Notes under the pieces: generated by a model
What the model was told of the DNA's origin: nothing
What the model saw: the letters and a program-made list of their open reading frames with translations, nothing else
The model's database searches: none
Shown: piece by piece, positions 17,576-45,297 of the stretch
How positions within the stretch are numbered: position 1 is the stretch's first letter
How the letters are laid out: each line of letters opens with the position of its first letter
Translations under genes and position numbers: made by a program
Source of the DNA: Candidatus Bathyarchaeia archaeon
GTDB taxonomy: Bacteria > Hydrogenedentota > Hydrogenedentia > Hydrogenedentales > SLHB01
Length of the DNA: 64,000 nt
NCBI GenBank assembly: GCA_035530195.1
Contig: DATKVG010000128.1
Location: 597-64,596, forward strand
Direction: 5' to 3'

Positions 17576-17929
17576 GTGCACCTCCTGCCGGCGTTGAGCC
17601 GCGTTTGCGACAGTATACCGGAGCAAGGGGACGGTTCCAAATGACAAAGGATAAATTGCAAATTACAGATGATAAAAGATGAAAAAACCCTCGGAAAAGA
17701 ACGGCAGGGGGGTGGGGTTGACGGGGGTGGGGCATATAGGATAAAGTCCTGCCATTGTGGGATAGGGGAGTTCTTTCTTTTGCGAAAGGAGAGGGATATG
17801 AAGCATGTGAAGTCGACGACGCGGCAGACCCCGGTGAAGGCGCAGGCTTTTAATCCATACCAGGAGAAGAAAGGCCGCCTTTTTGGGCCGTTCATGGCGG
17901 ACGGCACCTTCACGAAGTAAACAAGCTAA

Positions 17930-36548: not shown

Positions 36549-37444
36549 TTGCTTGTCCCTCCCGGACCTGCGATCTTGTCCATCATTTGGATAGCGTCGG
36601 CCTTTGCCGGCGCATCGAAAACCACGCACAGCAGCTTATCTCTTATACGGACGCCAGTCCACCGGCCGTTTTCGGTTTTTGCAAGGGCATCGGGGCCGGC
36701 GTCGGGCAAGTAGGCGTGCAGGAATTCGGAACGCGCGGCGCGGGCAGCCGCCGCAGCCGGATACCGGACGATCAGACTCGTCATGGGCGGCCCTTCCGGG
36801 GTTTTGTATCGCGCCAGTATGCCTTCGGAGTCTGAATCAAGGTTCAGCAGATTCTTATCGGAGACGTAGTAATAGAGGTTGAGCAGGAAGTGGTTGTGGA
36901 AATAGCGGGTATCGCCTGGCAGCAGGCCTTCGGCGGGCAGCAGGTTGAGCAGGCTGGGCGGACCGGCATCGCCGGCGATGGCGGTGGCGGTGGCTTCGCC
37001 AATGGCCATGATGGCCGCTCGTACAGGTTCAGAGGCCGTGGCGGCGGTGACGTAAACTACGTACCGGTCTTTCCAGAAGGCGAGCGTGGCGCTGTCAAAT
37101 TCGGACTCGCGGCCGACATGCACATCGGCGTCGTCGCGCGTATCATGGTGGTATGCGCCGAACGCGTCGGCGGACGTTTTCATTTTGAAGATGTCGGCGG
37201 TGATTTGGGGAAATCCCTGTTTAATGTAACGGCGTGCCACGACGCGCTGCACGTTCAACGCTTTGTAAATCTCCGATGCGCCGTCGATGTATTCATGGAG
37301 ATTTGCCGCGGAATAGACATTGTCCTTTGAGGGTGTCGTCCAGCCCAATACTTCTTTGGGCACAAGTTTTTCGATCTCGGGATCGACTTTCCGGCCCGGA
37401 TGAGCGTAAAATTGACCAACGGCAAATAAGAAGGCGAGTATCAT
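36545..37444 (-). CDS. Hypothetical exported protein, co-transcribed with the DUF362-like gene
   Basis: It has a hydrophobic N-terminus and clean coding composition. No family is assigned with confidence. Confidence 0.6.
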   Translation of the reverse strand: MILAFLFAVGQFYAHPGRKVDPEIEKLVPKEVLGWTTPSKDNVYSAANLHEYIDGASEIYKALNVQRVVARRYIKQGFPQITADIFKMKTSADAFGAYHHDTRDDADVHVGRESEFDSATLAFWKDRYVVYVTAATASEPVRAAIMAIGEATATAIAGDAGPPSLLNLLPAEGLLPGDTRYFHNHFLLNLYYYVSDKNLLNLDSDSEGILARYKTPEGPPMTSLIVRYPAAAAARAARSEFLHAYLPDAGPDALAKTENGRWTGVRIRDKLLCVVFDAPAKADAIQMMDKIAGPGGTSK

Positions 37445-37639
37445 GTGTTAAGCCTTTCGAGAAACCGGTTTCCATTATACTCCGGGGCCAAGAGGTGGTC
37501 ACGCGATTTTGCGGGTCATGCTAAGGATAAACGTAAGTGTTTACGCAGCAACGAATAGTCGCTGCTGTCGGTTGATAGATTGTCCGGGGTTCGAAATGGT
37601 TTGCGTTCAAACCATGCACAAAGAGGAAAGGGAAACCGT

Positions 37640-37768
37640 ATGAAACACGCAAAACCTTTGTCCAAGGCAATTCTTGGACCTACCAGTGGTATCCTGAGTC
37701 TCCTGCAGTTGCTGATAAACTTGGGGGTCCTCAACATTGAAGACATCTTCAAGAAGGACGGCGCCTAG
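37640..37768 (+). CDS. Small peptide P1 (42 aa), candidate precursor/bacteriocin-like peptide
   Basis: MKHAKPLSKAILGPTSGILSLLQLLINLGVLNIEDIFKKDGA. This is an internal start of ORF 37580..37768 with a purine-rich SD (aagaggaaaggga) upstream. It shares the MKH start and the D[IL]F..D.A end with P3. Confidence 0.55.
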   Translation: MKHAKPLSKAILGPTSGILSLLQLLINLGVLNIEDIFKKDGA

Positions 37769-38005
37769 GCGTCTCCCGCGGCCCCACATAACGTGCTGAC
37801 AGTAAAACACTTGTCTGACCGGGGCATATAATTGGCGTCTTTCACCTCGATGCCGGCTTGGAGGGAAAGAGGGTGGTTTGGCGCCGTAACAACTTTTGCC
37901 GAGCCGTGTATAGTTTTGAGAGCAGTGACGGCGGGGCTACCGTTGGCGGTGGTTCTGTCAGGGTAGGGTTTCCACATACTGTGCAGGTGGGTTTTGCGAG
38001 CCGCG

Positions 38006-38035
38006 TTGACAAGGGTTTAGGCAGGGTGATATACT
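38006..38035 (+). promoter_or_regulatory. Sigma70-like promoter upstream of peptide genes P2-P4
   Basis: TTGACA (38006-38011), then N17 to ATATAC or N18 to TATACT. It lies about 60 nt upstream of the P2 ATG. Confidence 0.5.
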
Positions 38036-38094
38036 CGCGGCCAAAAGGGGTTACAGCCTGTCAAGAGACAGGTTAAAGCCCATCAGGAGACGTT

Positions 38095-38244
38095 ATGAAA
38101 CATCTGCAAAAGGTATCGAAACCGCCCGTTCATGCTGCTGACATCCCTGTGGATGCCAAGATGGCGTTCATCATCTCGATTCTGACGGCATTCACCCCGA
38201 TTCTTGAGGCGAAAAACCCGGAGCAAACCACGCCAACCCCGTAG
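38095..38244 (+). CDS. Small peptide P2 (49 aa), candidate precursor peptide
   Basis: MKHLQKVSKPPVHAADIPVDAKMAFIISILTAFTPILEAKNPEQTTPTP. AGGAGA lies 4 nt upstream of the ATG. It is not in the ORF track (below the length cutoff). Confidence 0.6.
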   Translation: MKHLQKVSKPPVHAADIPVDAKMAFIISILTAFTPILEAKNPEQTTPTP

Positions 38245-38349
38245 TGATTCGGGTTAATCCGGAGATCGGCAGTGGGATGTGCTTAATCGCCAAGAAGCGG
38301 CGCCTAATACGCCGACCTTGTATAGGCAAACGAGCAAGGAGAAAAGAAG

Positions 38350-38475
38350 ATGAAGCACATCAGGAAAATGACAGTAGCGAAGGCGGATGTATTTACGGAC
38401 ATTGGCGATTTCTTCACCAACCTGTGGGATGAAATCAGCGGCTTCTTCAAGGACCTGTTTGGCGGGGACGCCTAG
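38350..38475 (+). CDS. Small peptide P3 (41 aa), candidate precursor peptide
   Basis: MKHIRKMTVAKADVFTDIGDFFTNLWDEISGFFKDLFGGDA. AAGGAG lies 8 nt upstream. It is not in the ORF track. Confidence 0.65.
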   Translation: MKHIRKMTVAKADVFTDIGDFFTNLWDEISGFFKDLFGGDA

Positions 38476-38505
38476 TCCAGCGGAGAAAAACGCCGGAGGT
38501 TTACC

Positions 38506-38673
38506 ATGAGACACGTATTGAAGGTATCTGCCACGTTGATGCGGCCCGAGGAGGGCCATCGCGCTCCTGTGGCAGTGCCGGATCGGGCCGACGCGAAGAC
38601 GGACTTCATGAATGCCGTCTATAACGCGTGGACCGATTTTGTGTACCAGAAGAAAAACGAGTTGAGCGTGTAA
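38506..38673 (+). CDS. Small peptide P4 (55 aa), candidate precursor peptide
   Basis: MRHVLKVSATLMRPEEGHRAPVAVPDRADAKTDFMNAVYNAWTDFVYQKKNELSV. GGAGG lies 6 nt upstream. It is not in the ORF track. Confidence 0.65.
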   Translation: MRHVLKVSATLMRPEEGHRAPVAVPDRADAKTDFMNAVYNAWTDFVYQKKNELSV

Positions 38674-38700
38674 ACCTGCCGTCGAAAACTTGCAGTACTG

Positions 38701-38740
38701 ACCGGGACTCCAGTGTCTTGAAGTCCCGGTTCTGTTTTCT
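38701..38740 (+). terminator. Rho-independent terminator/attenuator between the peptide genes and the enzyme genes
   Basis: ACCGGGACT-ccagtgtcttga-AGTCCCGGT followed by TCTGTTTTCT. Confidence 0.6.
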
Positions 38741-38774
38741 ATACGATCCGGTAAGTGAGGAATGATAAGGACTT

Positions 38775-39311
38775 GTGATTAAGGGCGCGCATAGCGTAAT
38801 CCGTTCGACCGACCCCGATGACGCGGGGGCGCTGAAGTCGGTTTACGACTCTCAGGCGCCGCGGTCGTCGCTGCTCGACCAGCGCCGGGAATTGAACCCG
38901 CCGACGCGGGACGAGCTGCGCGAGGTTATGGGCCAGAAGGAGATGGGGAAGGCGGTGTTTTATACGGTGGAGGATCCGGGCGGCGAAATCTGTGGATTCT
39001 GCTGTCTACGGGGGCTGAATCCCGAGGCGCAGTTCAGCGAATTTGTGGTGATTTTTCTGAATGAAGCGGCGTTTTCGACGCCGATGGCGGACGAAGTATT
39101 CGGGTTTTTGTCGCGGCTGGCGTTCCAGCGGATGCACAACCGCAAGGTGGTGACGCACTGCCTGGACAGCGAGACCGAATATCGGAAGTTTCTGATAGGC
39201 CATGGGTTCAAGAGCGCGGGCGTACAGCGGGACGTGGTGTTTTCGCAGGGGAGGTGGTTCAACCTGGAGGCGTTGACGCTTCGGGCCGCTGATTGTACGT
39301 TTGCCGCTTAA
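38775..39311 (+). CDS. GNAT acetyltransferase, RimJ/RimL-like (divergent)
   Basis: GTG start. The C-terminal half (...VFGFLSRLAFQRMHNRKVVTHCLDSETEYRKFLIGHGFKSAGVQRDVVFSQGRWFNLEALTL) follows the Acetyltransf_3 layout. Confidence 0.7.
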   Translation: MIKGAHSVIRSTDPDDAGALKSVYDSQAPRSSLLDQRRELNPPTRDELREVMGQKEMGKAVFYTVEDPGGEICGFCCLRGLNPEAQFSEFVVIFLNEAAFSTPMADEVFGFLSRLAFQRMHNRKVVTHCLDSETEYRKFLIGHGFKSAGVQRDVVFSQGRWFNLEALTLRAADCTFAA

Positions 39312-39341
39312 CAAACGGCCGGTTGAGGATCGATTTCTTAG

Positions 39342-39986
39342 ATGGCAATTAGGACCAGGACGTTCATCCGCCGGGCGGAGCGTGAAGATTTGGATACGGT
39401 GGTGGCGTGGATGGAGGATCCGGATTTTCAGCTTTTCCTTTACGGCGACCCGGCGCGATCGCCCAAGCAGATCCGTGAGCAGATTGTGTCGATGCTTGGG
39501 CGGTCGTCGGCCCAGACGGTGCCGGGCGGCCTGTACCTGATAATCGACTCGGCGGAACATGGTCCGCTGGGTTTGTTGTCGCTTCAGAACATCAGTTGGC
39601 GCAACCGCAGTTGCAGCATTGACTTGTACATGGGCAACAAGGAGATGCGGCACAAGCTGACGGCGGGGATCGCCTTTTACCGGGCGATGCAGTACGCGTT
39701 TGAAGAGCTGAACCTGCACCGGGTCAATGCTTACATTTACGCGTTCAACGAGGCGTCGTGGATGATCCTGGAGCGGATGGGTGCGGTGCGCGAACTGACG
39801 TTGCCCGAACACGTGGCCAGGGACGGCAGACTTTACGATCTTTACGGGTATGGGTTGCTGCGGCACGAGTTCGAGGCGTTCAAGGGAAAGAACCCGCACC
39901 TGGTCGAGGACGTGGTCGAATCCATGAGGGGGTTGAATTCGGGGCCGGCAGGGGGTGGCGAAAAGGCTGCGGAGAAAGATACGTGA
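39342..39986 (+). CDS. GNAT acetyltransferase, RimJ/RimL-like
   Basis: IRRAEREDLDTVVAWMEDPDF...AFYRAMQYAFEELNLHRVNAYIYAFNEASWMILERMGAVRELTLPEHVARDGRLYDLYGYGLL. Confidence 0.85.
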   Translation: MAIRTRTFIRRAEREDLDTVVAWMEDPDFQLFLYGDPARSPKQIREQIVSMLGRSSAQTVPGGLYLIIDSAEHGPLGLLSLQNISWRNRSCSIDLYMGNKEMRHKLTAGIAFYRAMQYAFEELNLHRVNAYIYAFNEASWMILERMGAVRELTLPEHVARDGRLYDLYGYGLLRHEFEAFKGKNPHLVEDVVESMRGLNSGPAGGGEKAAEKDT

Positions 39987-40876
39987 GCCTGCCAGCGGCC
40001 ATTTTTCTGTGCCTGATGCTGGGACACGCAGGCTTTGCGTTTTTTGTCAACCGCAGGCGGGGAGGTGTTGCGGGGGGCACAAACTTGCTGGTGTCGGCGT
40101 GGCCGTTTTACGTGGTTTTTGTTTCAGGCATCCGGCATCGGACGCCGGCGCTGCGGGCAGGCGCGGTTCTTCAGACGCTGCTGTTTGCTGTGGCATGCTG
40201 GATTGCGGCGGGCAGGGGTGTGTGGAGCCGCGAGTTGATATCTCCGATAGCAATCGGGGCCGGGCTGGCAGCCGGTCATCTGATATTCGGAATGAGCGTG
40301 CTGGCGACGCACAGGTCTTTACGGCAGGCGGGGAGGCACCTGATTGACTTGGGGCCGCTTTGGAATTATCTGACGGACAACCCGCGCATCCTGATGCAGT
40401 TTGCCAGCGTGAGCATCGCGGAAGAGACCATTTATCGGGCGGCGTTGCAGCCGCTGGCGGTGAGTTGGGTCGGGCCGGTTTTGGGCGTGGGGGCGGTGGC
40501 GGTGGTGTTTGCGTGCGTCCACGAACACTTTTTCCGGAACAGCTTGAGGCAGTCGGGCGAGTTTTTGGCGTTCGCGCTGTTGCTTGGCGGCCTTTATTAC
40601 TGGACGGGCAGCCTGATTCTTGTTATGGTCGTTCACGCGGCGCGGAACGTGGAAATCGCCTTCATGGAACGGCTCGCCCAGATAGAGGAATCGGGCGACC
40701 CGGACGCGGGCGAACGCGAGGCCCTGTTCGCCGAGGGCAGGCTGATCGAGGCGCTGGTGGTGGCGCCGGGGTGCGGGATGGCGGTGGGGTGCGTGGACCT
40801 GGCGGTCGAGCCGGTCTGTGAACCGGGGGCGTATCCGGTTCAGGCGCGGTGTTTTGGTCCGTTGGAGAACGTATGA
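39983..40876 (+). CDS. CPBP-family (CAAX/Abi-type) intramembrane glutamic metalloprotease
   Basis: It is polytopic, with all three CPBP motifs: EETIYR (EExxxR), FACVH (FxxxH) and HAARN (HxxxN). The GTG start overlaps the GNAT stop (GTGA). This is the in-frame part of ORF 39758..40876. Confidence 0.8.
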   Translation: MSLPAAIFLCLMLGHAGFAFFVNRRRGGVAGGTNLLVSAWPFYVVFVSGIRHRTPALRAGAVLQTLLFAVACWIAAGRGVWSRELISPIAIGAGLAAGHLIFGMSVLATHRSLRQAGRHLIDLGPLWNYLTDNPRILMQFASVSIAEETIYRAALQPLAVSWVGPVLGVGAVAVVFACVHEHFFRNSLRQSGEFLAFALLLGGLYYWTGSLILVMVVHAARNVEIAFMERLAQIEESGDPDAGEREALFAEGRLIEALVVAPGCGMAVGCVDLAVEPVCEPGAYPVQARCFGPLENV

Positions 40877-41886
40877 AAACCGAATATTTGGTGCGCATCG
40901 ACCGGGTCGATAAAACCTTCAAGACACGTCATCTGTTTTATAAGGACGACACGACGCCGCGCCGGCTATTGCACAAAAAGCTGGTGCAGGCGGCGAGGAA
41001 CATCGATTTTGGGATACGGGCCGGGGAGATTTTCGGCCTTCTCGGCCCAAACGGCGCGGGCAAGACCACGACGGTGAAGATGGTCTCGGGGCTGGTGCGG
41101 CCGGACAGTGGCGCGGTGTACGTGGACGGGCTGAACGTCGACAAAAAACGCCTGCAGGTGCTGAGGAAAGTCGGCGTGGTGCTCGAAGGTACGCGCACGA
41201 GCATTTGGCCGCTGACGCCGTACGAAAACCTGATGTATTACGGCAACCTGAAAGACGTGAAGGGGCGGGTGCTGAAAGAGCGTGCGAAGTCGCTGCTGAC
41301 ATTTATCGGGCTTGATCATAAGCAGCACATCGAGGTGAGGAAACTGTCGCGCGGCGAGAAACAGAAGCTGGCTATCTGCATCGCGCTGATTGCGGACCCG
41401 CCGGTGGTCCTGCTGGACGAGCCGACGACGGGCCTCGATGTCCAGAGCAGCCGCAACATCAAGGACAGAATCCTGGAGATGACGAGGGAGCAGGGAAAGT
41501 GCGTGCTGGTGACGACACACGACATGAACGTGGCGCAGGAGATCTGCGATCGGATCGGCATCATCGACCATGGCGTGCTGGTGGCGTGCCAGCCCAAGGA
41601 ATCGCTGCTGGATGTGTTCAGCGACCCGGTGTTCGAGTTCAAGCTGGACCGGCTGGTGCCCAACTCGATTTTGGACGGGATAGCGCATATCAACGAGATG
41701 ACGATGCGGATCGAAGAAGAGGGCCCGGTAGTGTCCGTGGCGCTGGAAACGGACCTCGAGGCGCGGTCGCGGGCACTGTACGACGTGGTGCAGCGGTTTC
41801 GGGATCAGGGCATTCTGTTGCGGTCGGTTTCGCAGCGGCAGCAGACGCTCGAGAACGTGTTTCTGCGGCTGACGGGCAAGAAGTAG
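40873..41886 (+). CDS. ABC transporter ATP-binding protein
   Basis: Walker A GLLGPNGAGKTT, signature LSRGEKQKLAI and Walker B VVLLDEPTTGLD. ATGA overlap with the CPBP stop. Confidence 0.9.
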   Translation: MKTEYLVRIDRVDKTFKTRHLFYKDDTTPRRLLHKKLVQAARNIDFGIRAGEIFGLLGPNGAGKTTTVKMVSGLVRPDSGAVYVDGLNVDKKRLQVLRKVGVVLEGTRTSIWPLTPYENLMYYGNLKDVKGRVLKERAKSLLTFIGLDHKQHIEVRKLSRGEKQKLAICIALIADPPVVLLDEPTTGLDVQSSRNIKDRILEMTREQGKCVLVTTHDMNVAQEICDRIGIIDHGVLVACQPKESLLDVFSDPVFEFKLDRLVPNSILDGIAHINEMTMRIEEEGPVVSVALETDLEARSRALYDVVQRFRDQGILLRSVSQRQQTLENVFLRLTGKK

Positions 41887-41905
41887 GTACTGAGGACGTA
41901 GCCGA

Positions 41906-42799
41906 ATGGGTTTTTTGCTGGTACTGAAGGCTGAATTTATCCGCAACATGATCGTGATGCGGCGGTACTGGTTCAGGACCGTGACGGGAATGATCATCGG
42001 GTATGGGATGCTGATGTCGATGATCTGGATGTTTCATTCGAAGGGGGGCGTAGATCCGGAGGGGTTTGCGAGCCGGTTCAGCGATCCGGAAGATGCGACG
42101 AAATTTGCCCTGACTTTTATCATCGGGATGCTGGCGTTTGGCATAGTGGGCCTTTTCAGCCAGGGTTTGCAGGGGATGGCGCAAAGCGGCCAGTTGGAGC
42201 AGTTGTGCATGAGCCCGCACGGGCTGGTGTCGAATTTCATGGCGCGGTCGTTGATGGCGTCGGTGACGTCGGTGCCGACGTCGGCGCTGATGGTTTGGTT
42301 GATCGCGTACCGGGTGAGATTCGACTTGCCGATGACGACGTTGGCCGACTTTTTGACGCTGGTTCTTCTGTTGGCGCTGGCGTTCTTGAACCTGATTGGG
42401 TTTGGTTTCATGGTGGGCGGATTGGTGCTGGTGTTCAAGCAGACCGGCCAGGTGGCGGTGATCGTGCGGATGGTCTTGTTGGGTATCGCCGTCATGGCCG
42501 ACGACGTGCGGACGTTCCCAAAGATACTTCAAGTGTTTTCGCACGCGTTGCCCATCACAGATGCCACGCTGTGCCTGATCCACCTTGTGATCCGGGGGCA
42601 AATGCAGCCGGTGTATGACGCGAAAGGCAAGCCGCTGATGGAAGGGGCGAAGGTGGTGGCGAACTACGTGCCGATCCTGTTTCACCCGTCGTTTTTGTTG
42701 CTGCTGGTGAACTGCGCCGTCTGGACGTTCCTGGGCATCGCCTGTTTTCGCTTCATGGAGAACTGGAGCCGCAACAAGGGCACCCTGGGGGCCTACTGA
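41906..42799 (+). CDS. ABC-2 type transporter permease
   Basis: Six hydrophobic segments, following the ATPase by 19 nt. Confidence 0.8.
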   Translation: MGFLLVLKAEFIRNMIVMRRYWFRTVTGMIIGYGMLMSMIWMFHSKGGVDPEGFASRFSDPEDATKFALTFIIGMLAFGIVGLFSQGLQGMAQSGQLEQLCMSPHGLVSNFMARSLMASVTSVPTSALMVWLIAYRVRFDLPMTTLADFLTLVLLLALAFLNLIGFGFMVGGLVLVFKQTGQVAVIVRMVLLGIAVMADDVRTFPKILQVFSHALPITDATLCLIHLVIRGQMQPVYDAKGKPLMEGAKVVANYVPILFHPSFLLLLVNCAVWTFLGIACFRFMENWSRNKGTLGAY

Positions 42800-44718
42800 T
42801 GCCGCGGGAGGCCTTGCACCGGTTCGAGCACGACGGCAAACGGTTTGCCATCGACCCCGAGACGTGTTTTTGTTTCGAGTGCGACGCGATCTGCTGGGAC
42901 GTGCTCGAGCACTACGCGCAGGAGACCAGCAACCGGATCTTCCACCTTCTCAAAAACAAGTACAGCCTGAAAGAGTTGGAGGAAGTGGCGGGCGAACTCG
43001 AATGGCTGCGCGCATCCAAATCAATACTCAGGGCGCCCAAAAAGGAAGACCTGCTCAAACAGTTCGAGGTCGAACGCGGGCTGAAACGGGTGTCGGTGTC
43101 CTTGCCGCGGGAGACGGCGGAGCCCATACAGGCGCAGGCGCGGTGGTTTGGCCGGCCGGCGCGGGTGGTATCGTCGGGCGGGCGTGAAATCGGCCGTGGT
43201 GCGGTTTTGCTGCTGCTGGGCCGGTCGGGCGCGCAGAAAGAATTGCAGCTCGAATTTGTCGAAGAGGGGCACATACACCACCCTGAGTTGATTGCGGAAC
43301 TGTGCGGGTGGGCGTTGAACTCGGCGCGGCTTGCCGAGAAAACGCTGACGGTCTCGGTGCATGTCACGAACATTACCGTGGCGAAACTGCCCGAGGCGCT
43401 TGCGGGGCATACGCTGGGTGCGAAGCTCGAACTGACGAGGGCAGAGGGCGTCCTGGCGCACGTGAACGCGCTGGCGGCCGCTATCGGCGAGACGTTGCCG
43501 CGGTTGGCCAAAGCGCTCGAGCCGGACGCCAAAGACGCCGGCGGGCGTGTCGTTGTTCGGCCGAACCACCCCGGGTTTGGAGAAGTGGCGGAAACGCTGG
43601 ACGATTCCGGTTTCACGGGCATCGAGATTGATCTTGACGGTGCGTACGTGGCCAACCCGGGGCTGGAGCCGGGCGCAGTCACGGCCGCAATGGAAGAGAA
43701 CGCGCGCTATTACGCGGGGCGGCTGATGAAACACCATTACTTCCGGCTGGACCCGATTGCGCCGCTGTTCTGGCGGATCTATTCGGGCGCGCCGGTGGCG
43801 AGATCGGACTCCGCGGGTACCAACGAACTGGCGGTCGAGGGCGACGGCAGGATTTATCCGTCGATGCGGCTGTCGGGCAAAGAACCGTTTTGCCTGGGCA
43901 GTTTGACGGACGGGCTGGACGAGGAGAAAGTCCGGCCGTTTGAGGATGTGGGGGCGCTCACCACTCATCCATGCACGGGCTGTTGGGCGCGCAACCTCTG
44001 CGGCGGGGGCACGGCGGCGGTGCATTATGCGCTGGCGGGCTCGATTCGGACGCCACACCCGGCGTGGTGCGGCGGGCAGCGGGCGTGGATGCAGAGCGCG
44101 GTTTCGGCGTTTCAGGTGCTGTCCTCGGCGGGCATCCACTTTGAACGGGTTTACAGGATCCTTGGCCGGCGGGAGAAACCGTCGCTGTTCGCGCTGGCCA
44201 AGGCGGCGATTACGATGAGCATCGGCGTCCGGCCCATCGAAGAAGCCGACGCGGAACTGGTGACCAAATGGGAGAGCTGGAACGAGTCGGCCTACTTCCT
44301 GTTCAACGAATCGGGCGTGTACCTGGCAACGAAATACGACCGCGAGATGGACTCGCTCCATCCGCGGGGCATCGATCAGGAACTGATACTGCTGCGGAAA
44401 TCCGGCGAGCCGTTCGGGCTGCTCAAGCTGCGGCCCAAATGGGTCGGCGGGGCCGTGCTGGTTTGGGTGTACATGCGCGACGAGGCCGACTACGCCGCCG
44501 AGCCCATCCGCAAAAGTTTCCGCGCCATCCTCAAAGAGGCGGCCGGCCAGAGCAGCGTGCGCCAGATCGTCGTGCCGGTCTCGCCAAAGGAGAAGCCGCT
44601 GAGCGAGTTTTTATCTGCGGTGGGTTTTGGGGAAGTGGGCGCGATGCGCGATGCCCTGTACCTGCACGGAAAATACGAGGATGTCACGCTGTATGCGACC
44701 GCGCCAGACAGGCTTTAA
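42799..44718 (+). CDS. Radical-SAM-maturase-like protein lacking the CxxxCxxC motif, with a partial SPASM domain and a C-terminal RimJ/RimL-like GNAT domain
   Basis: The N-terminus LHRFEHDGKRFAIDPETCFCFECDAICWDVLEHY resembles the start of SCIFF/anSME-type peptide maturases. There is no CxxxCxxC anywhere. The SPASM-like region is FCLGS...HPCTGCWARNLCGGGT...AWCGG. The last ~190 aa (IGVRPIEEADAELVTKWESW...DALYLHGKYEDVTLYA) look like a GNAT. TGATG overlap with the permease stop. Confidence 0.75.
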   Translation: MPREALHRFEHDGKRFAIDPETCFCFECDAICWDVLEHYAQETSNRIFHLLKNKYSLKELEEVAGELEWLRASKSILRAPKKEDLLKQFEVERGLKRVSVSLPRETAEPIQAQARWFGRPARVVSSGGREIGRGAVLLLLGRSGAQKELQLEFVEEGHIHHPELIAELCGWALNSARLAEKTLTVSVHVTNITVAKLPEALAGHTLGAKLELTRAEGVLAHVNALAAAIGETLPRLAKALEPDAKDAGGRVVVRPNHPGFGEVAETLDDSGFTGIEIDLDGAYVANPGLEPGAVTAAMEENARYYAGRLMKHHYFRLDPIAPLFWRIYSGAPVARSDSAGTNELAVEGDGRIYPSMRLSGKEPFCLGSLTDGLDEEKVRPFEDVGALTTHPCTGCWARNLCGGGTAAVHYALAGSIRTPHPAWCGGQRAWMQSAVSAFQVLSSAGIHFERVYRILGRREKPSLFALAKAAITMSIGVRPIEEADAELVTKWESWNESAYFLFNESGVYLATKYDREMDSLHPRGIDQELILLRKSGEPFGLLKLRPKWVGGAVLVWVYMRDEADYAAEPIRKSFRAILKEAAGQSSVRQIVVPVSPKEKPLSEFLSAVGFGEVGAMRDALYLHGKYEDVTLYATAPDRL

Positions 44719-44757: not shown

Positions 44758-45297
44758 ATGGAGATTGTGGTGAACGAAACGGCTGGTAGCAGAGATCCGT
44801 GGCGGGCGGCGGCGTTTGGTTTGTGGGAGTTGTTTTTTTTGGTGGGCCTGCTTCCGGAACCGGTGTTTCGGTTGCTGCGTGATGCGGGCGCGGTACTGCC
44901 TCAGCGGGCCGTCGTCAATTCGCCGTACGCGATCACGATTGGGCTGGCGGGTTTTCTCGCCGTGTTTGCCTACAACCAGTGCCGCAGGCACGGGCTGTCG
45001 CACGGCGAAGCGGGGGACAAGTCGCTGCAGTATGCGGTCGTGGCGCTGGTCGCGTTTCTCCCGGTGGATTTTATCGGGGTGCTGAACGTCATCGGAAACG
45101 AGCTTGTTCGGAACCGGTCGACCATCTATCTTTCGACGGCGGCCAAATCGGTGGCCTGGCTTTATCTGATGATGCTTATATGCAAGTACTACCTTGGGAA
45201 CGATTCGGCGTTTATGAGCATGCCATCGTTTTTCCCAAGCACGCGCCGAGGCGCGAAGGGCGGTGGCGGTAGTGGCGGGTCGGTTGAAGGGGTGTAA
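44758..45297 (+). CDS. Hypothetical integral membrane protein (about 4 TM) with a Gly-rich tail
   Basis: Hydrophobic segments FGLWELFFLVGLL, ITIGLAGFLAVFAY, AVVALVAFLPVDFIGVL and VAWLYLMMLICKYY. It starts 40 nt downstream of the fusion gene. Confidence 0.55.
   Translation: MEIVVNETAGSRDPWRAAAFGLWELFFLVGLLPEPVFRLLRDAGAVLPQRAVVNSPYAITIGLAGFLAVFAYNQCRRHGLSHGEAGDKSLQYAVVALVAFLPVDFIGVLNVIGNELVRNRSTIYLSTAAKSVAWLYLMMLICKYYLGNDSAFMSMPSFFPSTRRGAKGGGGSGGSVEGV

Follow-up and report, generated by a model that had tools for sequence, protein, structure and literature searches.

What does a bacterial locus produce that joins four small tandem peptide genes to three GNAT acetyltransferase domains, a CPBP membrane protease, a putative ABC-2 exporter and a homolog of a radical S-adenosylmethionine (SAM) enzyme that has no SAM cluster? 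The locus in question lies at positions 37,640 to 44,718 of a 64,000-nucleotide stretch of DNA (the window; positions 597 to 64,596 of the forward strand of contig DATKVG010000128.1, assembly GCA_035530195.1), where a first-pass annotation had proposed a system for peptide modification and export with the logic of a RiPP (a peptide made by the ribosome and modified after translation) or bacteriocin locus and an enzyme set fitting no class. We find that the leader of the peptides and the maturase scaffold with its RiPP recognition element (RRE) are of SCIFF/ScfB (ranthipeptide) ancestry, a link missed in that annotation, and present the locus as a candidate SCIFF-derived RiPP class. Both this evolutionary link and the phylum-wide conservation of the locus are solid, and it is likely that the locus encodes a SCIFF-derived, leader-dependent system for peptide maturation and export.

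The anatomy described in the first-pass annotation is borne out by the DNA and by a six-frame list of open reading frames (ORFs): four small ORFs starting with M-[KR]-H, a hairpin and a string of six genes are all present where it had placed them, on the plus strand. The six genes code for GNAT1 (38775-39311; 178 aa, GTG start; Acetyltransf_4, 2.4e-8), GNAT2 (39342-39986; 214 aa; Acetyltransf_3, 4.2e-17), an Rce1-like CPBP protease (39983-40876; 297 aa; PF02517, 2e-11), an ABC ATPase of the DrrA/ABC-2 type (40873-41886; 337 aa), an ABC-2 permease (41906-42799; 297 aa; ABC2_membrane_3, 30.7 bits against a cut-off of 31.6), and a fusion protein (42799-44718; 639 aa) combining a SPASM domain (TIGR04085 at aa 339-420) with a further GNAT domain (at aa 478-630). 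Start/stop overlaps are seen directly in the DNA at GTGA (39983; GTG start of the CPBP gene on the GNAT2 stop), ATGA (40873; ATG of the ATPase gene on the CPBP stop), and TGATG (42799). In other loci too the fusion gene starts at, or at most 1 base from, the permease stop; the CPBP and ABC genes, which overlap here (ATGA), always adjoin. We compared the contexts of eight divergent members and 78 metagenomic loci, onto which the window proteins were mapped by tblastn (L-numbers denote loci fetched for comparison, P-numbers their proteins). Upstream of the fusion gene, the order GNAT1-GNAT2-CPBP-ATPase-permease is kept in 44 of 45 loci (42 distinct), the count being restricted to loci with at least 4.6 kb of DNA in that direction, and this recurrence is far beyond chance; furthermore, one to five small ORFs bearing the leader described below lie directly upstream of GNAT1 in 34 of the 42 distinct loci. 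Since the flanking genes differ from locus to locus, the cassette itself is the conserved unit, and the junction overlaps together with the constant gene order uphold the earlier view of a single, translationally coupled unit whose fusion homologs are syntenic with GNAT, CPBP, and ABC genes and mostly with small ORFs. As to the statement that the enzyme set fits no class, it stands insofar as no curated family (NCBIfam release 20 has no model for any cassette component), no defense model (for the ATPase, PADLOC gave generic ABC/AAA ATPase matches and nothing more, and the other five proteins had no match), and none of the entries that came up in text searches of 8 million papers and preprints describes the system; it does not stand for the leader and the RRE/maturase scaffold, which derive from SCIFF/ScfB.

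More than 120 full-length proteins are related to the fusion at 50% identity or above, and those with a name come nearly all from metagenome-assembled genomes (MAGs) of Candidatus Hydrogenedentes/Hydrogenedentota. An exhaustive search of 1.84 billion representatives gave about 50 clusters at E < 1e-30 with full-length members down to 28% identity, the sole named member of the 28-31% clades being Candidatus Hydrogenedens; below 28% there is a clean drop, and the next matches are ordinary radical SAM/SPASM maturases of 450-490 aa. A protein identical to the window fusion (HUW61424.1) and the type C peptide (see below) from the same contig carry the NCBI label 'Candidatus Bathyarchaeia archaeon'. 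Given that every named relative at 50-89% identity is labeled Hydrogenedentota, and that the ribosome-binding sites and terminators of the locus are bacterial, the label probably reflects a mis-binned contig.

The ancestry is apparent in the fusion protein, which the first-pass annotation had correctly taken for a maturase homolog lacking the radical SAM cluster and fused to a GNAT domain. A profile of 21 fusion sequences matched CteB (PDB 5wgg/5why), the structurally characterized SCIFF maturase of Clostridium thermocellum, with E 1e-40 across residues 4-435; likewise, 5wgg is the best Foldseek match (4e-16) of the AlphaFold2 (AF2) model, whose predicted local distance difference test score (pLDDT) is 79.5 and exceeds 90 in the barrel. 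At the N-terminus, aa 1-90 (42799-43068) form an RRE of the ScfB/CteB type, aligned to CteB residues 5-90; this region is modeled as three strands plus helices with winged-helix topology (pLDDT 84-93), and taken alone it is 29% identical to the RRE of a bona fide ScfB (E 4e-10). It is followed by a partial TIM barrel of the radical SAM type delineated by the CteB alignment (aa ~95-335; 43081-43803), a half-SPASM domain (aa 338-445; 43810-44133; TIGR04085, 31.3 bits against a cut-off of 27), and GNAT3 (aa 475-639; 44221-44718), which has a RimJ/RimL/SpeG-like fold and a non-canonical CoA loop, DYA..vRKGF. The best NCBIfam matches of the fusion are the ScfB families, far under their cut-offs: it scores 66.8 bits against TIGR03974 (ScfB), below the cut-off of 425, versus 573-608 bits for true ScfB proteins. 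Thus, on profile and model comparison, residues 1-445 are homologous to the SCIFF maturase CteB/ScfB.

The chemistry of that ancestor has evidently been lost. In the profile searches that the first reading had suggested, GNAT, CPBP, and SPASM matches were obtained; Radical_SAM (PF04055) gave none in the fusion. The CxxxCxxC motif, found near residue 100 in nearly all ordinary full-length radical SAM relatives, occurs in none of the ~45 full-length representatives of the fusion family; the CteB CxxxCxxC aligns with 'LPRET...' and CteB FFGGEP with 'FVEEGH', i.e., the GGE motif is gone as well. The barrel is thus predicted to be catalytically dead for SAM chemistry. An Elp3-like cooperation of radical SAM and GNAT domains was considered and rejected, the SAM cluster being absent. 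Elp3 also combines a radical SAM fold with a GNAT domain in one polypeptide, an architectural analogy only: it has an active cluster, lacks RRE and SPASM, acts on tRNA, and its arrangement is not homologous. Separately, locus L095 (308-3916) encodes a 656-aa RRE/SPASM protein (P0223), again without CxxxCxxC, which is fused to a Peptidase_S24-like domain, preceded by a 32-aa ORF (MGSIHKLDVKVKHGGFVYDSWVADESGEPILE) and followed by a genuine radical SAM gene. This suggests that the joining of dead ScfB-like scaffolds to other enzymes is a recurring theme.

Could the fusion nevertheless perform some other metal-based catalysis? Its SPASM part falls short of the seven-Cys pattern for two auxiliary [4Fe-4S] clusters: C392, C395, C401, and C424 never vary across the 21 sequences, T/A/S/N stands in place of the fourth Cys of CX2CX5CX3C, and the upstream Cys is not conserved (CteB 'CDSCWAKFYCSGGC' aligned to 'CTGCWARNLCGGGT' of the fusion). 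Going by anSME and CteB, the four retained cysteines are presumably the ligands of auxiliary cluster II (Aux II) and the lost ones those of Aux I, and one [4Fe-4S] cluster is probably still held at the Aux II site. Also invariant in these sequences are H7 and the cysteines of CFCFEC (C23, C25, C28; window 42817-42884), on the strand of the RRE that in CteB has the leader as its partner. An Fe-S site at Aux II, and possibly one at the N-terminal CxCxxC/His, might then sustain redox or other catalysis, with the GNATs being secondary; consistent with this are the invariance of C392, C395, C401, C424, H7, C23, C25, and C28 and the high-confidence barrel with its invariant polar residues R142, K181, H204, K238, and D278. 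However, there is neither a SAM cluster nor a GGE motif, CxCxxC is missing from the most divergent clades (P0155, P0157, P0159, P0161, P0163) that still bear MKH peptides, and no Cys is present in 86 of the 97 peptides described below, so that thioether chemistry is impossible on such cores. We regard retained Fe-S catalysis as the principal activity as very unlikely.

The peptides point to the same ancestor as the scaffold. Across the family we collected 97 unique peptides of 30-65 aa, whose leader follows the consensus M-K-H-[ILV]-x-x-[VIL]-[ST]: M1 is present in all 97, K2 in 88 (R2 in nine), H3 in 93 (R3 in four), [ILV]4 in 91, [VILM]7 in 95, S/T8 in 97, and A14 in 49, with the Ala near position 14 closing a P/V-x-x-A-type junction. 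The logo of 113 SCIFF peptides, M-K-H-[IV]-K-T-[LIV], shows the same N-terminal motif. A bona fide ScfB (572.9 bits against TIGR03974) among the fetched loci lies beside a SCIFF gene (L092, 741-893; TTG start; 75.3 bits against TIGR03973), and in the other ScfB context (L091) no SCIFF gene adjoins. In the crystal structure of CteB with CteA, the leader is bound as an extra strand on the RRE β-sheet (PMC6231123). The simplest reading of these similarities is that leader and RRE go back, as a recognition pair, to a SCIFF-type ancestor. Against NCBIfam and Pfam at E <= 10 the peptides had no meaningful match and none to SCIFF, and a leader peptide had no match among PDB sequences. Other accounts of the M-K-H motif were tried and set aside: an amino-terminal Cu(II)- and Ni(II)-binding (ATCUN; NH2-X-X-His) metal site, given the Arg at position 3 in four of the 97 peptides and the same motif in the GNAT-free SCIFF, and N-terminal acetylation of Met1, since SCIFF again shares the motif without GNATs. 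RRE recognition accounts for it better than ATCUN. A Sec or Tat signal peptide was also rejected, since the stretch from the basic N-terminus to the A-x-A site contains no hydrophobic h-region.

The four peptide genes of the window, each with a GGAG-type ribosome-binding site 6-10 nt upstream, encode distinct types. Precursor 1 (37640-37768; 42 aa, MKHAKPLSKAILGP...) has the least canonical leader and a hydrophobic helical core ending in KKDGA (Kyte-Doolittle hydropathy 1.74 over 18 aa). Precursor 2, of type A (38095-38244; 49 aa), has the leader MKHLQKVS, the junction ..PPVHAA, the segment DIPV...FIISILTAFTPILEAKNPE, and a T/P tail; 19 unique members occur in other loci, with the core pattern DIP...F[IV][IV].[IV]L.AF.P[LI]L.AKE. 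Precursor 3, of type B (38350-38475; 41 aa), joins the leader MKHIRKMTVAKA to the acidic amphipathic helix DVFTDIGDFFTNLWDEISGFFKDLFGG (hydrophobic moment 0.59, z = 3.4 against shuffles), the type pattern being VAKA followed by an acidic amphipathic helix ...FFKDLFGG. Precursor 4, of type C (38506-38673; 55 aa, MRH...), consists of the leader, a variable linker, an A-D-A junction, and the core KTDFMNAVYNAWTDFVYQKKNELSV (type pattern ADA.TDF.NA.WRAW.DF.Y.KKNE). Further core types exist beside A, B, and C, including a two-Cys subtype (C.N..SD.Q..LCF...FF.P.L.EIK; L011 5337-5522, L012 5300-5494, L044 3398, L088 2840), which has the only Cys-bearing cores of the family. Compared with an 89%-identical relative, the four window ORFs show 22 synonymous codon differences and 19 non-synonymous ones, chiefly at third positions (for precursor 1 and its L013 ortholog, four of each kind), which indicates purifying selection; this pattern and the conservation of the peptides across the family rule out chance ORFs. 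Elsewhere in the window, a 40-aa ORF (MKHVKSTTRQTPVKAQAFNPYQEKKGRLFGPFMADGTFTK; 17798-17920, plus strand) is a candidate unlinked fifth precursor: its N-terminus agrees with the leader (M-K-H-V...P-V-K-A-Q) apart from Thr at position 7, and the ORF, which follows a promoter-like TTGACG and a strong ribosome-binding site (AAAGGAGAGGGATATG), is trailed by a hairpin.

No other peptide type is as well conserved as type C, which, where present, is always the last precursor before GNAT1. Its family comprises 132 database clusters, all annotated 'hypothetical', the named ones being almost all from Hydrogenedentota; in 49 sequences M1, H3, A30, and K49 are invariant, and the linker between the leader and the invariant A-D-A spans 0-18 residues. 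AF2 models aa 1-29 of the window peptide as disordered and aa 30-53 as a helix (pLDDT ~90) that starts at the last Ala of ADA. Given that the window and L012, a Candidatus Hydrogenedens-type locus, share ~68% identity in the type C core versus only ~31% in the fusion protein, the type C peptide is the most conserved component of the system. The general plan of the peptides is the leader, a linker of short or varying length that closes with an Ala-x-Ala-like junction, a usually Cys-free hydrophobic or amphipathic helical core, and then a conserved Lys and a polar tail. For the peptides as a whole, a transmembrane-like stretch is found in 43%, a hydrophobic moment above 95% of shuffles in 36%, and the median net charge of the cores is -1; Lys occurs within the last 16 aa in 93 of 97, with a density of 9.3% in the tail versus 2.8% in the core.

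Between the precursors and the enzyme genes of the window lies a terminator- or attenuator-like hairpin (38692-38744, plus strand) with a GC-rich stem (CCGGGACT...AGTCCCGG) followed by a T-rich tail, the fold at ~38692-38735 having -20.8 kcal/mol. A hairpin of -15 kcal/mol or lower plus a T tract is found between the last precursor and GNAT1 in 29 of 33 distinct loci, versus 7 of 132 shuffled gaps, and a common stem sequence, CCGGRRM...KYYCCGG, in 23 of the 33. The succession of precursor genes, terminator, and enzyme genes is the usual layout of RiPP and bacteriocin operons, by which precursor transcript is made in surplus and the enzymes are reached by partial read-through. Equivalent hairpin gaps occur in, among others, L003, L005, L006, L013, L014, L017, L018, L021, L022, L036, L038, and L048, and not just the structure but the letters of the stem are kept even where the proteins of two loci share only ~50% identity, a hint that more than simple termination constrains the stem sequence. 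The best sigma-70-like site of the region is upstream of precursor 2 (38006-38035, plus strand; TTGACA-18 nt-TATACT, 11 of 12 consensus matches); it is promoter-like by consensus match only. It falls within the 326-nt spacer 37769-38094, which is 89% identical to L013 over 303 nt, on par with the coding regions, and may contain a promoter or a regulatory RNA; Rfam gave no match over 37000-39000.

Which of the cassette proteins might act on the peptides? The three GNAT domains differ in how well they match known families (Pfam cut-offs of 24.3 to 25.4 bits). GNAT1 matches Acetyltransf_4 with 34.6 bits (cut-off 24.3) and lacks a Gly-rich CoA loop, and GNAT3 reaches 23.0 bits with the same model, under the cut-off of 24.3, with a Foldseek probability of 1.0 to 3igr, 1s7l, and SpeG. 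These two are paralogs of each other, with Glu where most GNATs have Asn. GNAT2 matches Acetyltransf_3 with 63.6 bits and, at the profile level, the SpeG and AAC(6') structures (4e-17); it is the best-conserved GNAT (55-67% identity in most of the divergent loci fetched by protein look-up), with the invariant motifs SWRNRsC, FN..SW, and Hv.Rdg and a CoA loop of the form R-x-x-x-x-A, in which the Arg alone is conserved. Judged by sequence, GNAT2 is most likely the catalytic acyltransferase of the three.

The CPBP protein (PF02517, 44.4 bits against a cut-off of 22.4) has the motifs EExxxR, FxxxH, and HxxxN (EETIYR, FACVH, HAARN), invariant or nearly so in 41 orthologs, and is presumably an active protease. 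The ATPase scores 100.9 bits (1.2e-28) with ABC_tran and 237.8 bits (1.6e-70) with TIGR01188 (drrA type), below the 312 cut-off of the latter, and the permease is unusually well conserved across 65 orthologs (LEQ.CMSPHGL..NF.AR; GFGFM.GGLVLVFKQ.GQ; EN.SR.KGTLG.Y). The pairing of a protease with a putative exporter recalls the peptidase-containing transporters (PCAT/LanT) and MroQ, in logic only, in that leader removal at the membrane is tied to export. Unlike PCAT/LanT, the cassette has no C39 peptidase domain in any of its proteins by Pfam and NCBIfam and no Gly-Gly leader, the leaders ending A-x-A-like; instead it has a separate glutamic intramembrane protease and an ABC-2 pump with a separate ATPase.

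The same genes bear on the bacteriocin part of the first reading. In class IIb bacteriocin loci, Abi/CPBP proteins confer immunity, unmodified phenol-soluble modulins (PSMs) are handled by Pmt ABC exporters, and the ATPase scores 133.9 bits with the lantibiotic-protection ABC family. The peptides might accordingly form an unmodified multi-peptide bacteriocin or PSM-like set, for which CPBP and ABC-2 provide immunity and export, the GNATs serve in detoxification or for some other reason are not tailoring enzymes, and the fusion serves as a chaperone only. The tandem helical peptides, with their transmembrane-like stretches and significant hydrophobic moments, next to an ABC exporter are indeed like aureocin A70, enterocin L50, and PSMs with Pmt, and the non-canonical CoA loops fit as well. 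But those systems are not known to have a conserved leader, an RRE partner or GNATs, and if nothing were modified, there would be no sense in a conserved leader together with an RRE scaffold and a trio of GNAT domains that selection has kept in 44 of 45 loci; moreover, typical toxins of this kind are cationic, as opposed to the neutral to anionic cores seen here, and the higher conservation of the type C core than of the fusion is the reverse of arms-race diversification. We therefore consider this explanation unlikely. Of the RiPP-or-bacteriocin logic in the first-pass annotation, the precursor/tailoring/protease/exporter part is supported; the phylum-wide spread and a core more conserved than the enzymes argue for a physiological role over a typical, fast-evolving bacteriocin.

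The conservation of the permease raises a further alternative, that the peptides belong to a housekeeping CPBP/ABC-2 envelope machine as small membrane or regulatory subunits, or serve as its substrates, with the scaffold and the GNATs controlling their stability or insertion. The phylum-wide spread with varying flanking genes is in keeping with this, as are the helix, Lys, and polar tail that resemble a membrane anchor, the clades that keep the cassette without adjacent peptides, and the existence of curated ABC-permease/CPBP fusions (NF041647, a weak match here). It is at odds with the RiPP-derived leader/RRE pair, with a terminator-controlled precursor excess and one to five diversified paralogs, as is typical of RiPP/bacteriocin operons, and with the acidic amphipathic cores of types B and C, which are not transmembrane-like; to us it appears improbable, to about the same degree as an unmodified bacteriocin set.

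Returning to a SCIFF-derived maturation and export system, we propose the following course of events. A leaky terminator would keep the peptide transcript in excess over that of the six enzyme genes. The RRE of the fusion would bind the leader as an added β-strand, by analogy to CteB and CteA, and the dead scaffold would offer the core to its own C-terminal GNAT and also to GNAT1 and GNAT2, which are separate proteins. Pseudo-dimeric GNATs such as MshD are known, and GNAT1 and GNAT3 could likewise be partner or adaptor subunits, with GNAT2 as the catalyst. The GNATs would N-acylate the peptide, most likely by acetylation, either on the Lys that follows the helix and is invariant in type C, or on the new N-terminus once the leader is gone. 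The CPBP protease would cut off the leader at the A-x-A junction, for which the trimming of the AgrD leader by MroQ, a CPBP protease of Staphylococcus, is a precedent, and the ABC-2 pump would export the product or insert it into the membrane. Given that the peptides are kept phylum-wide and that the enzymes are less conserved than the type C core, we expect a physiological role (envelope or signaling) rather than that of an arms-race toxin. Taken as a whole, a model with a dead ScfB scaffold, GNATs, leader removal by CPBP, and ABC-2 export is in our view rather probable. Acetylation or acylation as the specific modification is a more doubtful element of it, and the fullest version, a new phylum-wide RiPP class in which a SAM-dead scaffold-GNAT recruits SCIFF-leader peptides for N-acylation and CPBP/ABC-2 matures and exports them for a physiological role in the envelope or in signaling, is offered tentatively.

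Several observations weigh against this model. The canonical R/Q-x-x-G-x-G/A loop is missing from all three GNAT domains, and some or all of them may be non-catalytic or use another donor; the AAC(6') structure matched by the GNAT2 profile has R-G-R-S-I-G at the loop position, and loop loss is not proof of inactivity. The model does not explain the N-terminal CFCFEC triad, which could be a metal site. By analogy to bacteriocin loci, in which CPBP and ABC-2 proteins also act as immunity factors, processing and export may not be the sole reading of these two components. About eight of the 42 distinct loci, from clades with 32-40% identity, have the enzyme cassette and no leader-bearing ORF within up to ~17 kb; no MKH or type C peptide was found by regular expression or tblastn in L008, L061, L063-65, L071, L079, and others, and the precursors of these clades may be unlinked. 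Finally, the apparent restriction to Hydrogenedentota is drawn from MAG labels alone.

The surroundings of the cassette show some patterns of their own. In several of the peptide-less clades mnmE is directly upstream of the cassette, and in L008 a gene for a TolC-like outer membrane efflux protein (OEP) is just downstream. The glutamate synthase genes gltB and gltD are directly upstream of the precursors in L001, L006, and L007, three otherwise divergent loci, and this arrangement is not found in the window, L003, or L005. In the window, a 179-aa predicted membrane protein with a Gly/Ser-rich C-terminus (44758-45297, plus strand) begins 40 nt past the fusion gene; it has no Pfam or NCBIfam match and is absent downstream of the cassette in the other loci examined.

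How, then, does the cassette compare with known peptide systems? With SCIFF/ScfB (CteA/CteB and Tte1186a/Tte1186 of Clostridia; TIGR03973 and TIGR03974) it shares the M-K-H-[ILV]... leader beginning at Met1, a maturase with RRE, TIM barrel, and SPASM for which CteB is the best match by sequence and fold, the placing of a precursor gene beside a maturase-type gene, and conservation across a clade. Unlike SCIFF/ScfB, it lacks CxxxCxxC, GGE, and the full set of Aux I ligands, and its cores are without the six-Cys pattern (no TIGR03973/PF13165 match even at E <= 10); it adds three GNAT domains, CPBP, a putative ABC-2 exporter, and several diversified precursors per locus, and its hosts are diderm Hydrogenedentota rather than Bacillota. 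RiPPs tailored by GNATs include microviridin (MdnD), goadsporin (GodH), and albusnodin (Lys acetylation), and acylated ones the selidamides, goadvionins, and lipolanthines. As in these, GNAT genes here accompany ribosomal precursors, with the N-terminal amine or Lys as plausible targets; in contrast to them, the cassette has no acyl carrier protein or fatty-acid genes. No GNAT-tailored RiPP that we know of carries a SCIFF leader, has its GNAT joined to a dead radical SAM scaffold, or unites three GNAT domains with a CPBP protease and an ABC-2 pump.

The SCIFF link and the phylum-wide conservation would surprise a RiPP specialist. If the proposal is correct, the cassette would represent a RiPP-like pathway with a hitherto unseen enzyme set (a dead radical SAM scaffold, three GNAT domains, CPBP, and ABC-2) and the first case of a retained RiPP leader/RRE pair with both its chemistry and its core exchanged, thereby providing natural evidence for the plug-and-play leader logic of RiPP engineering. 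The approximately 100 natural leader/core combinations and the defined six-gene cassette are directly testable by heterologous expression. The relationship ties the long-enigmatic clostridial SCIFF to a second phylum and a putative second chemistry, which offers a comparative handle on SCIFF function, and marks the cassette as a conserved, lineage-specific trait of the Hydrogenedentota, whose records here are all MAGs of uncultured organisms.

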